From: an uncultured Lentisphaeraceae bacterium
GTDB lineage: Bacteria > Verrucomicrobiota > Kiritimatiellia > RFP12 > UBA1067
Reading direction: 5' to 3'
Length of the DNA stretch: 64,000 nucleotides
NCBI GenBank assembly: GCA_964386865.1
Contig: CAYLUN010000004.1
Location: 28,123-92,122 of the forward strand
The notes under the pieces were generated by a model. That model had not been told where the DNA came from and did not search any database. It saw only the letters and a list, made by a program, of their open reading frames with translations. A program made the translations under genes and the position numbers. Of this stretch, positions 50,869 through 53,102 are shown in pieces. Positions within the stretch are counted from its first letter, which is position 1, and every line of letters begins with the position of its first letter.

Positions 50869-50913
50869 TTGACAAGGCCCTCCGGTAGTGGTAAATTCGC
50901 CACATAACGAAAT
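50869..50913 (+). promoter_or_regulatory. promoter (TTGACA-17-TAAATT) with an overlapping operator-like imperfect palindrome AATTCGCCACATAACGAAAT
   Basis: -35 at 50869-74, -10 at 50892-97, motif at 50894-50913. Its TTCG[C/A]CACATA[A/G]CGAA core (14 of 16 nt identical) recurs in the same register at 53084-53102. Confidence 0.55.
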
Positions 50914-50923
50914 GAGGGGCGGC

Positions 50924-51316
50924 ATGAGAAGCGGTGCGATGAGGTCGGCTCTGCGGGTGACGAAGGCGCTGTCGGACGGTCAGCGCGTCCGGATCCTGAT
51001 GATGTTGCGCAGCGGCGAGTTGTGCGTCTGCCGGATCGTCGAGGTGCTGGGCCTTGCGGCCTCCACCGTGTCGAAGCATCTGTCGATCCTGAGCGAGGCG
51101 GATCTTGTCGATTGCCGCAAGGACGGCCGCTGGGCGTACTACCGCTTGCCGCACGGCTCGGCGCGCGCGGCCGCGCGCCTGATGCTGAAGTGGCTGGAGG
51201 ACGCGCTCGCGGAGGACGAGTCCGTGCGGCGCGACGCGAAGAAGCTGGAGGGCGTTCTAGCGGAGGCGCGCGCGGAGGCCGAGCGCAGGCGGAAGCGGCG
51301 GCCCAAGGAGTGCTGA
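50924..51316 (+). CDS. arsR: ArsR/SmtB-family regulator directly upstream of hgcAB
   Basis: …ALSDGQRVRILMMLRSGELCVCRIVEVLGLAASTVSKHLSILSEADLV…. Start chosen by analogy with the paralog at 55387 (ATG 50912 or GTG 50888 also possible). Confidence 0.85.
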   Translation: MRSGAMRSALRVTKALSDGQRVRILMMLRSGELCVCRIVEVLGLAASTVSKHLSILSEADLVDCRKDGRWAYYRLPHGSARAAARLMLKWLEDALAEDESVRRDAKKLEGVLAEARAEAERRRKRRPKEC

Positions 51317-51319
51317 GCC

Positions 51320-52378
51320 ATGAGCGGTGTGTGCTGCGGCGGAACGTGCGGGGCGGGAGCTTCTGCGCGGTGGGTCAACGGATACTGGGCTACGGCTGCC
51401 GGAGGCGTGCCGCGCGTGTCCACGCGTTGGACGTGGCGGGACACGCTGGGAGCGCGGTCGGTCTGCTGGGGCGCGCGGCGCATGCGGTACGCCGTGCCGC
51501 CGGGCTTATACGCGGTCGGGGCGCCGACTCCGGGCTCGCCGCTGCTCGCGACGGCCAACTACAAGCTCTCCTTCGACCACGTGCGGCGGGCGCTTGCCGG
51601 GTTTGACGCGTGGGTGCTGGTGCTGGACACCAAGGGCGTGAACGTCTGGTGCGCGGCGGGCAAGGGGACGTTCGGAACGGAGGAACTGGTCGGGCGACTG
51701 GGCGCCTGTGGCGCGGAGCGGGTTGTCGGCCACCGTACGATCATCGTCCCTCAGCTTGGCGCGCCGGGCGTGGCGGCGCACGAGGTGAGCCGCCGAACGG
51801 GGTTCAGGGTCATCTATGGGCCGGTGTACGCGAAAGACCTGCCCGCGTTTCTGAACTCCGGCATGCGCGCCACGCCGGAGATGCGGCGCGTGGGCTTCAC
51901 GCTGCGGGAGCGGCTCGCCGTCACCCCGATCGAGCTGGTTCACCGGCTCATTCCTGCGCTGATCGCGCTGGCGCTGTTTCTGGCGTCGTCGGGTCTGGGG
52001 AGGAGCGGATACCGGCTGGAAGCGGGGCCGTGCGCCTGGGTCGCGCTGGCGGTCGTGTTCAACACGCTTGCCGGGATCGTTCTGACGCCCGCGCTCCTGC
52101 CGTATCTGCCGGGCCGGTCTTTCGCGCTCAAAGGGGCTGCGACCGGGGTGGCGCTGGGCGCTGCGCTCGCGTGGCTGTGGCCGTTCGGATGGCTGGCGGG
52201 CGCGTCGGTTGGGCTGCTCAGCGTGTCGGCCTGTTCGTTTCTGGGGCTGATGTTCACGGGTTCTACGCCGTACACCTCGGCGTCCGGGGTGCGCCGCGAG
52301 CTGGCCTGGGCGCTGCCGGCGCAGGGAGGCTTGGCTGCGGCGGGGCTTGCGGGATGGACCGCGTCGCTGTTTCTGTGA
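51320..52378 (+). CDS. hgcA: mercury methylation corrinoid protein HgcA
   Basis: Cap-helix motif GVNVWCAAGKGTFGT. The N-terminal half is CFeSP-like (…PPGLYAVG…LLATANYKLSFD…), and the C-terminal half has about five hydrophobic helices. Confidence 0.88.
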   Translation: MSGVCCGGTCGAGASARWVNGYWATAAGGVPRVSTRWTWRDTLGARSVCWGARRMRYAVPPGLYAVGAPTPGSPLLATANYKLSFDHVRRALAGFDAWVLVLDTKGVNVWCAAGKGTFGTEELVGRLGACGAERVVGHRTIIVPQLGAPGVAAHEVSRRTGFRVIYGPVYAKDLPAFLNSGMRATPEMRRVGFTLRERLAVTPIELVHRLIPALIALALFLASSGLGRSGYRLEAGPCAWVALAVVFNTLAGIVLTPALLPYLPGRSFALKGAATGVALGAALAWLWPFGWLAGASVGLLSVSACSFLGLMFTGSTPYTSASGVRRELAWALPAQGGLAAAGLAGWTASLFL

Positions 52379-52387
52379 GGTGTTACA

Positions 52388-52714
52388 ATGTCGATGACCT
52401 ATCTGAAAAACGTGGTTACGCTGCGGCTGAGCTGCGACGCCTGCGTCGGCTGCGGCCGCTGCCTGGAGGTCTGCCCGCACGGCGTTTTCGCGCTGGACGC
52501 GGGCAAGGTTCGGGTCGGCGCGCGCGACGCCTGCATGGAGTGCGGCGCCTGCGCCCGCAACTGTCCGGTCGGCGCGCTGTTTGTGAAGAACGGCGTGGGC
52601 TGCGCGGTCGGCATCCTGAACGCGAGGCTGGGGCGTACGTCGTCCTGTTGCGGGGAAGGCCAGCCGTGTTGCTGCTCCGGAGAACCGGATGTGAAAAATA
52701 GAGGAGGCGCGTGA
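52388..52714 (+). CDS. hgcB: mercury methylation ferredoxin HgcB
   Basis: CVGCGRCLEVCP and CMECGACARNCP (2x[4Fe-4S]) plus the Cys-rich tail SSCCGEGQPCCCSG. It starts 10 nt after hgcA. Confidence 0.88.
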   Translation: MSMTYLKNVVTLRLSCDACVGCGRCLEVCPHGVFALDAGKVRVGARDACMECGACARNCPVGALFVKNGVGCAVGILNARLGRTSSCCGEGQPCCCSGEPDVKNRGGA

Positions 52715-52995
52715 TGGATGAAAAGACGAAAGAGCTGATCGCGATCGGCGCGTCGGTGAGCGCCCATTGCCAGCCGTGCGTGACGTACCATGTTGGAAAA
52801 GCGCGGAAACTAGGCATCGGCGAGGATCTGATCCTGGAGGCGGTGGCCGTCGGCCAGATGGTGGAGAAGGGGTCGAGCTCGGCGATGCGCGACTTTGCTC
52901 AGGGGCTTTTGGGAAAACCTGTGGTGGCGGGGTGCTGTCCCGAGAAAGGGCGGCTCGAGACGCCCGCCGGGGACGCGCGGTGCCCCTGCGGGTGA
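52714..52995 (+). CDS. carboxymuconolactone decarboxylase/AhpD-like CxxC protein with a Cys-rich C-terminal tail
   Basis: …ELIAIGASVSAHCQPCVTYHV… is the AhpD-core CxxC…H motif. The tail is …GCCPEKGRLETPAGDARCPCG. Its ATG overlaps the hgcB stop (TGATG). Confidence 0.78.
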   Translation: MDEKTKELIAIGASVSAHCQPCVTYHVGKARKLGIGEDLILEAVAVGQMVEKGSSSAMRDFAQGLLGKPVVAGCCPEKGRLETPAGDARCPCG

Positions 52996-53057
52996 GGGAT
53001 GGCCCGTTTGCTGCGGCCGAGATTTTGCCGCCGCCACGACTCGTCGGAGGACGCCGG

Positions 53058-53102
53058 TTGACGCGCGGCGATAATGGTGCTATATTTCGACACATAGCGA
53101 AT
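53058..53102 (+). promoter_or_regulatory. promoter (TTGACG-17-TATATT) with operator-like motif ATTTCGACACATAGCGAAT
   Basis: -35 at 53058-63, -10 at 53081-86, motif at 53084-53102. It is paralogous to the motif at 50894-50913. Confidence 0.55.

Follow-up and report, generated by a model that had tools for sequence, protein, structure and literature searches.

The mercury methylation genes hgcAB of an uncultured Lentisphaeraceae bacterium and a neighbouring arsenic resistance (ars) operon share a palindromic promoter element that recurs beside one clade of ArsR proteins in many bacterial phyla. The element was analysed in a 64,000-nt window of this genome (GCA_964386865.1, contig CAYLUN010000004.1, positions 28,123-92,122 of the forward strand), where one copy (O1) stands before arsR1-hgcA-hgcB-ahpD-like (operon 1) and another (O2) before a small Cys-rich protein gene-P1B ATPase-arsR2-Cys222-ccdA-arsC-acr3 (operon 2). 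O1 and O2 are real, specific sites, conserved in position and sequence across phyla beside the ArsR clade. The cis-element is statistically secure and of the ArsR operator-promoter type, tying hgcAB of the Planctomycetes-Verrucomicrobia-Chlamydiae (PVC) bacteria to an arsenic regulon. We consider it likely that O1 and O2 are the operators of the ArsR1/ArsR2 clade, at which initiation would be blocked until an inducer released the repressor and both operons were switched on.

Two promoters share a palindromic element

Both direct reading and an independent consensus search of 45-60 kb recovered, letter for letter, the two promoters that an earlier note on this DNA had proposed: TTGACA-17-TAAATT (P1) and TTGACG-17-TATATT (P2). 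The search returned four promoter-like sites, P1 and P2 among them, each with 10/12 matches and TG-extended (TGgTAAATT at 50889-50897 with TG at 50889-50890 for P1; TGcTATATT at 53078-53086 with TG at 53078-53079 for P2). The 16-bp cores of O1 and O2 are identical at 14 of 16 positions, exactly as claimed, and the O2 motif at 53084-53102 reads ATTTCGACACATAGCGAAT. The O1 core shares 2 nt with the 3' end of the -10 hexamer and extends over the expected transcription start, and the O2 core overlaps the -10 by 1 nt. The two sites had been described as lying in the same register; both do adjoin the -10, but their registers are 1 nt apart, TTGAC beginning 27 nt (O1) or 28 nt (O2) before the first T (T1) of the operator. 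In relatives, 28 nt is the modal register.

A scan with TTCGNCACATANCGAA, allowing up to two mismatches, matched only O1 and O2 in the window, where 0.24 matches were expected; the scan pattern suggested earlier, ATTYCGNCACATANCGAAW, misses its own first site (AATTCG...). We then scored the window with a weight matrix made from 40 unique sites of other genomes, the window sites being excluded. O1 reached 32.3 bits and O2 24.7 bits; the next-best site scored 11.2, and none of 50 shuffles exceeded 17.7. The looser pattern ATTTCG-N8-CGAAAT with two mismatches gave four matches in the window versus 1.56 expected and is not significant alone; specificity is carried by the inner bases of the operator.

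The small sample of two sites is all that speaks for a chance likeness between O1 and O2. Its probability is negligible: 14/16 identity has P = 2e-5 among random 16-mer pairs of the window, both sites lie at promoters, the independent matrix recovers exactly these two, and the comparative data already refute it. A recent duplication of the promoter region was also ruled out, the likeness being confined to the core with 25-32% identity in the flanks. Outside the 16-bp core the P1 and P2 regions agree at 23/71, 4/24 and 11/40 positions, which is the random level, and the likeness is therefore selected rather than the remnant of a duplication. Identical copies of the O1 core occur upstream of arsR-hgcAB at four loci of the comparison samples described below (L010, L011, L093, L095), and an identical O2 core precedes arsD-arsA-arsR2 in L012.

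The element is conserved beside one ArsR clade

Two samples of 80 loci were compared, one drawn from an alignment scan of the ArsR clade (one genome per species) and the other from a metagenome scan with the window HgcA as query. The ArsR-side loci come mostly from PVC bacteria (Kiritimatiellia, Lentisphaerae, Verrucomicrobia), with others from Planctomycetota, Krumholzibacteria, Sumerlaeota, Eiseniibacteriota, Myxococcota, Desulfobacterota, Nitrospirota/Nitrospinota, Actinomycetota, Riflebacteria and Bdellovibrionales. When all 4-mer dyads with gaps of 0-14 nt were enumerated without bias in the 110 bp 5' of arsR, TTCG-N8-CGAA came out on top, in 45/80 regions versus 0.008 expected per region (about 0.6 in total). 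Exact sites were found within 120 bp 5' of the arsR start in 40/80 loci, compared with 0.12 sites expected overall. A site of at least 14 bits was present in 71/80 loci, almost always at the operon start and with few departures from the common register behind the -10. TTGAC began 27-29 nt before T1 in 35/45 sites, giving a 17-bp spacer. In more than 10 bacterial phyla, the palindrome precedes related arsR operons at the same position directly after the -10. Together with the invariant recognition helix described below, this phylogenetic footprinting strongly supports the earlier proposal of a shared repressor operator and a putative common ArsR regulon that links Hg methylation to arsenic genes.

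Promoter-intrinsic signals lie over the -10 and the start as this site does, and we considered whether the palindrome might serve another factor or be an intrinsic promoter or initial-transcribed element instead of an ArsR site. This is very unlikely given its dyad symmetry with invariant outer arms, its strict co-occurrence with one ArsR clade in more than 10 phyla and the lack of it at other promoters, among them that of the ArsR3 type in the same genomes. Nor is any other regulator gene conserved nearby.

Architecture of the element

The profile of the 40 sites reads c-T-A-T-A-t, then T-T-C-G-Y-Y-A-y-r-T-R-R-C-G-A-A, then a-T-g/a-a. The element is a contiguous 8+8 palindrome with the half-site TTCGYYAY, 16 bp long or 20 bp with flanks (consensus cTATAt-TTCGYYAY-RTRRCGAA-at), and the last base of the -10 hexamer TATAnT is the first T of the core, O1 being shifted by one base. 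The palindrome noted earlier is thus present, but it consists of TTCGYYAY/RTRRCGAA and not of 6-bp arms around an arbitrary spacer. The 40-site information profile has no 2-bp central spacer and does not show the 12-2-12 layout of SmtB/CzrA-type operators. Each candidate dyad operator lies in the promoter of an operon carrying its own predicted repressor gene, as in autoregulation.

Positions 5 and 6 are pyrimidines and positions 11 and 12 purines, and yet no more than 22-28% of the 40 sites have complementary bases at the pairs 5/12 and 6/11. C-A and T-G combinations dominate these inner pairs, and the halves are usually TTCGCC and TTCGTT. Non-complementary inner positions would fit a protein dimer that distinguishes purines from pyrimidines rather than base pairing. 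The same feature bears on whether the element acts in RNA, as a hairpin or riboswitch-like structure of the 5' untranslated region, a reading to which we give next to no credence. Most of the motif lies 3' of the predicted start and is hence transcribed, and the perfect palindrome TTCGCCATATGGCGAA of L066 could form a 6-bp stem. However, an Rfam search found no match at E <= 1 and folding of the transcribed region was no better than that of shuffles (z-scores -1.07, 0.04 and 0.73), which with the non-complementary inner positions rules the RNA reading out.

The ArsR paralogs and the two proposed operators

ArsR1 and ArsR2 are assigned to the ArsR/SmtB family by winged helix-turn-helix matches above curated thresholds: 55.8 and 60.1 bits, respectively, for Pfam HTH_5 (PF01022, cut-off 22) and 90.3 and 86.7 bits for NCBIfam NF033788 (cut-off 55). 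BLASTP aligned them with 85/126 identities (67%), and the 78 of 109 counted earlier by hand is exact over the first 109 residues. Their clade comprises 2566 proteins at E <= 1e-10. A 30-member alignment shows no variation in the ELCVC box, in the recognition helix (STVSKHLSxLS) or in the wing (KxGRWA); ArsR1 and ArsR2 have the same helix, STVSKHLSILS, and the same wing, KDGRWAY. The cysteines of ArsR1 are C34, C36, C64 and C130, with no second CxC. The CVC pair (C34, C36) is invariant in the clade and every aligned member has at least one Cys in the C-terminal tail, which in these proteins is an extension of about 40 residues with a conserved Cys.

Because the recognition helices are identical and no base is specific to O1 or O2, cross-regulation of both operons is likely, and each paralog probably binds both operators. 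Alternatively, the paralogs could be insulated, with ArsR1 acting only at O1 on another signal (Hg(II), methylated arsenicals or S-adenosylhomocysteine), ArsR2 only at O2 on arsenite, and no common regulon. In its favour, the subclade of ArsR1-type proteins, 65-74% identical to ArsR1 and with KEC at the end of the tail, has hgcA as the next gene in 11/13 complete loci, its tail is unlike that of the ArsR2 type, ArsR1 has the extra Cys64, and the hgcAB regulator of Pseudodesulfovibrio mercurii ND132 answers S-adenosylhomocysteine besides arsenic. Such insulation nevertheless seems improbable when helix and wing are the same in both proteins, orthologous sites vary at least as much among themselves as O1 differs from O2, and a single ArsR2-type gene heads arsR-hgcAB-arsC-acr3 in many relatives (L018, L025, L031).

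Proposed regulation by ArsR

In the regulation that we favour, by the ArsR1/ArsR2 clade at both sites, an ArsR dimer at the operator would span the end of the -10 across the transcription start (+1), predicted near 50904 and 53093, and so would keep RNA polymerase from forming an open complex. On binding the inducer, a thiophilic metalloid and likely As(III), the repressor would come off and both operons would be turned on. The As(III) would be held by the invariant CVC pair with the C-terminal Cys as probable third ligand. We take arsenite as the likely inducer since arsC/acr3/arsDA make up the regulon in every phylum and the CVC pair is invariant. Both operons would be negatively autoregulated since each contains its own repressor gene.

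Several points weigh against this proposal. Nine of the 80 ArsR-side loci have no detectable site, although some of these are truncated or carry arsR inside the operon. The third Cys of the Escherichia coli plasmid R773 ArsR is absent, with ELCVCRIV/ELCVCQII in place of ELCVCDLC, and the candidate inducer is therefore derived from regulon content only. The PDB holds no solved structure of a close relative (best match E = 2e-10), and the PVC promoters were taken as sigma-70-like by assumption. ArsR binding, repression, As(III) as inducer and cross-regulation between the paralogs are all steps that we infer.

Going further, PVC hgcAB might truly belong, induced by arsenite, to the arsenic resistance regulon, standing behind the operator of arsC/acr3/arsDA and often in one transcript, with a dedicated ArsR1-type paralog and the general ArsR2 sharing the operator as a two-input gate; we hold this extension to be rather doubtful. 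If it were true, hgcAB expression would require the release of both sensors, and the native task of HgcAB would be to detoxify arsenic (or methyl-arsenic) and not to carry out mercury chemistry.

Operons behind the element

The gene content behind the sites was determined by tblastn with the window proteins and by open reading frame and family checks. Three operon types were found: arsR-arsC-acr3 in most phyla; arsD-arsA-arsR-... in several PVC loci, with ArsD (116 bits) and ArsA (781 bits) of L012 both above their equivalog cut-offs; and, in PVC genomes, arsR-hgcA-hgcB-(ahpD-like)-arsC-acr3 as one string (L010, L018, L025, L031). The two-operon layout of the window recurs in L008, L011, L012, L016 and L019, and in L012, L015, L019 and L027 an operator stands immediately before hgcA with no arsR between. 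In the sample drawn with HgcA, the operator stands before hgcA or arsR-hgcA in 11 of the 12 loci whose HgcA is at least 57% identical; the twelfth is truncated upstream. Loci at 54% or below are mostly without the site and have other ArsR types. With the same palindrome at the hgcAB and ars promoters and across phyla, PVC hgcAB appears to be wired into an arsenic-responsive regulon.

A few distant arsR-hgcAB loci, in which ArsR is about 40% and HgcA about 50% identical, retain the outer arms and the register of the site with other inner bases (GAATTCAC, GTAAACGC): TTCGGAATTCACCGAA in L126, L128 and L129, where the site is about 30 nt 5' of arsR at about 3470, and TTCGGTAAACGCCGAA in L157, where it is at 3470. 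The differing inner bases hint at co-evolving operator variants.

A further arrangement was seen in L008 (4124-4984) and also in L016, L092 and L096, in which the operator is followed by a class I S-adenosylmethionine-dependent methyltransferase gene (286 aa) and then by arsR1-hgcAB. Arsenite methyltransferase models match this protein below their cut-offs (45-52 bits).

The control of hgcAB expression and the true function of these genes are open questions in mercury biogeochemistry, and in lakes and sediments the bacteria that carry hgcA in greatest abundance are often Kiritimatiellae or other PVC members (PMC11984097). In Lake Mendota metatranscriptomes, the hgcA genes preceded by arsR-like genes are mostly those of Kiritimatiellae, and the hgcA/gyrB transcript ratios that go with them are lower (PMC11984097); a lower ratio with arsR-like genes is what a repressor predicts. 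With a defined cis-element, membership of an hgcAB locus in the arsenic regulon can be tested from sequence alone, and regulons can be predicted in uncultured genomes. The 20-bp target provided by the element can be used in electrophoretic mobility shift assays and reporter work in E. coli without culturing a PVC methylator. The element would also supply an operator for a widespread, uncharacterised ArsR clade, with possible use in arsenic biosensors.

Comparison with known regulators

The plasmid R773 and chromosomal ArsR of E. coli resemble the proposed system in being homodimeric, autoregulated winged-helix repressors of the ArsR/SmtB family with an ELCVC box, encoded in their own operon with arsenic resistance genes. 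Their operators differ in place and sequence: in R773 an imperfect repeat occupies -64 to -40, ahead of the RNA polymerase site (PMC12607644), whereas the window site adjoins the -10 and covers +1, and the two sequences are unrelated. Cys37 of R773 ArsR is missing in the window proteins, which have the C-terminal extension with Cys; R773 ArsR needs only Cys32 and Cys34, according to the ND132 preprint (bioRxiv 10.1101/2022.10.17.512643). SmtB, CzrA and CadC share with the window a dyad operator in the promoter or over the start and derepression by ligand (PMC5658604), but they use 12-2-12 repeats and govern a Zn/Cd regulon, in contrast to the spacerless 8+8 TTCG/CGAA element and the arsenic-type regulon here. 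The Bacillus subtilis AseR operator TATATAACGATTTGCTTATATA, bound by an arsenite-responsive ArsR-family repressor, has TATA-rich outer flanks like those of the extended window form TATATTTCG...CGAAATATA; inner sequence, spacing and protein clade are different. The B. subtilis ArsR operator lies upstream of the -35, unlike the window sites.

A parallel case is ArsR2 of P. mercurii ND132 (DND132_1054), whose ArsR-family gene is directly upstream of hgcAB and co-transcribed with it; the protein controls hgcAB and responds to arsenic (bioRxiv 10.1101/2022.10.17.512643). The earlier note had named this case correctly, yet it is a parallel with a different Cys signature and not the same regulator. 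ND132 ArsR2, compared here by its description, has a site formed by four cysteines (C47, C49, C86, C88), and homologues of it are reported only in Desulfovibrionaceae, while window ArsR1 combines the CVC pair with C64 and a C-terminal Cys and is part of a clade whose centre lies in PVC bacteria and Planctomycetota. ArsR1 lacks the four-Cys arrangement of a CxC after helix 2 and a CxC before helix 4. Because the ND132 regulator is of the four-Cys type and reported only in Desulfovibrionaceae, the window regulator is of a different ArsR lineage, which would have captured hgcAB independently. The ND132 preprint contains no operator or promoter analysis. The adjacency of ArsR or ars genes to hgcAB has already been published (Goni-Urriza 2020, McDaniel 2020, Gionfriddo 2022/2023, Zhang 2023, Peterson 2025), and these studies, as far as we examined them, define no promoter or operator. 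Literature searches with consensus 10-mers, which returned only primer noise, and with ArsR operator and regulon keywords found no description of TTCGYYAY-RTRRCGAA, although regulon databases might hold one.

Gene content of the two operons

Table 1 Promoters, proposed operators and genes in the window (positions within the 64,000-nt stretch).
Feature	Position	Strand	Description
arsR3	45692..45985		97 aa; heads arsP (PF03773)/Thioredoxin_3/thioredoxin/DsbD_TM cluster (45635-48918)
Promoter P1	50869..50897	+	-35 TTGACA 50869-50874; 17-bp spacer; -10 TAAATT 50892-50897
Operator O1	50894..50913	+	AATTCGCCACATAACGAAAT; core TTCGCCACATAACGAA at 50896-50911
arsR1	50924..51316	+	130 aa; ATG at 50924, preceded by GAGGGG at 50914-50919
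hgcA	51320..52378	+	352 aa; 4 nt after arsR1
hgcB	52388..52714	+	108 aa; 2x[4Fe-4S] ferredoxin with Cys-rich tail; Pfam Fer4 matches
AhpD/CMD-like CxxC protein	52714..52995	+	93 aa; start overlaps hgcB stop
Promoter P2	53058..53086	+	-35 TTGACG 53058-53063; 17-bp spacer; -10 TATATT 53081-53086
Operator O2	53084..53103	+	ATTTCGACACATAGCGAATC; core TTCGACACATAGCGAA at 53086-53101
Small Cys-rich protein	53156..53332	+	58 aa; GCGPGCGC; first gene of operon 2
P1B-type heavy-metal ATPase	53414..55351	+	645 aa; CPC motif; TIGR01525 585 bits (cut-off 346)
arsR2	55387..55776	+	129 aa; arsR1 paralog
Cys-rich membrane protein	from 55769 (start probably 55814)	+	222 aa
DsbD/CcdA-like protein	56442..57167	+	241 aa; no family match of its own
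arsC	57169..57597	+	arsenate reductase of the low-molecular-weight protein tyrosine phosphatase type; Pfam LMWPc 72.9 bits
acr3	57696..58745	+	arsenite efflux permease; TIGR00832 equivalog 451.6 bits (cut-off 282.8)

The start of arsR1 was chosen identically by the gene caller in seven metagenome contigs. HgcA matched the NCBIfam equivalog HgcA_corrinoid (NF040863) with 399 bits (cut-off 275) and contains the cap-helix motif N(V/I)WCA(A/G)GK in the form NVWCAAGK, and hgcB comes after hgcA in all relatives; by model, motif and adjacency, hgcA and hgcB of operon 1 are assigned as the mercury methylation pair. The AhpD/CMD-like protein (Pfam CMD 42.7 bits; NCBIfam ahpD_dom 36.4 bits, cut-off 27.8) is kept behind hgcB in L008, L011, L012, L016, L019 and L092. 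The intergenic gaps of operon 1 are 4 nt and 10 nt, followed by the overlap. No terminator-like site was seen between the end of operon 1 and P2 (52995-53058), and read-through from P1 into the ars operon is therefore possible.

The genes of operon 2 follow O2 on one strand with tight spacing, and the presence of a predicted arsenite permease and arsenate reductase with arsR identifies it as an ars operon. It had been described as a metal ATPase operon; the ATPase is present, but relatives have arsD-arsA in its slot. The slot taken by the small Cys-rich protein and the P1B ATPase in the window is occupied by arsD-arsA in L011, L012 and L032. The small Cys-rich protein and P1B ATPase also fill it in L015 and L017, and L019 has the ATPase there with no small-protein match detected. 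The 58-aa GCGPGCGC protein has no match in Pfam or NCBIfam, and its homologues, 62-85% identical, are paired with the ATPase in L015, L017, L029, L030, L037 and L098. The two may form a metallochaperone/pump pair recruited to the ars operon.

The 222-aa Cys-rich protein has CGPGCNC at its N-terminus and CGAGGCGPSGCK at its C-terminus, and its gene start at 55814 (MSGQKD) is suggested because homologues begin there. Neither this protein nor the 241-aa protein matched a Pfam or NCBIfam family. The DsbD/CcdA label of the latter rests only on cross-matches with the DsbD_TM protein of the arsR3 cluster, which are weak tblastn matches of 24-34% identity (L102, L108, L110, L111, L120, L124, L127, L141, L144, L159), each assigned to one or other of the two DsbD/CcdA-type proteins of the window. 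Inside PVC ars operons, the Cys-rich 222-aa and DsbD/CcdA-like genes always occur as a pair.

The arsR3 promoter and related dyads

The promoter of arsR3, TTGACA-18-TATTAT (45635-45670 region), served as a control. It carries a different dyad of 4-8-4 form, AATTGGTTATTATGCCAAA (45652-45670), centred on the -10, and scored only 8.9 bits with the weight matrix. This dyad is conserved in the closest arsR3 ortholog, that of L011, which has ATTTGTTTATTATACCAAA at the same position. ArsR3-type operons in the other loci showed no site of the O1/O2 type.

A related dyad with A/T-rich inner bases (e.g. TTCGTAATATTACGAA) was observed in L102 (6525), L124 (6689), L141 (1960), L159 (1220 and 3067) and L110 (1319). 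It precedes thioredoxin/CcdA-type or ArsR3-like genes near distant hgcAB loci and may be the operator of another ArsR clade.

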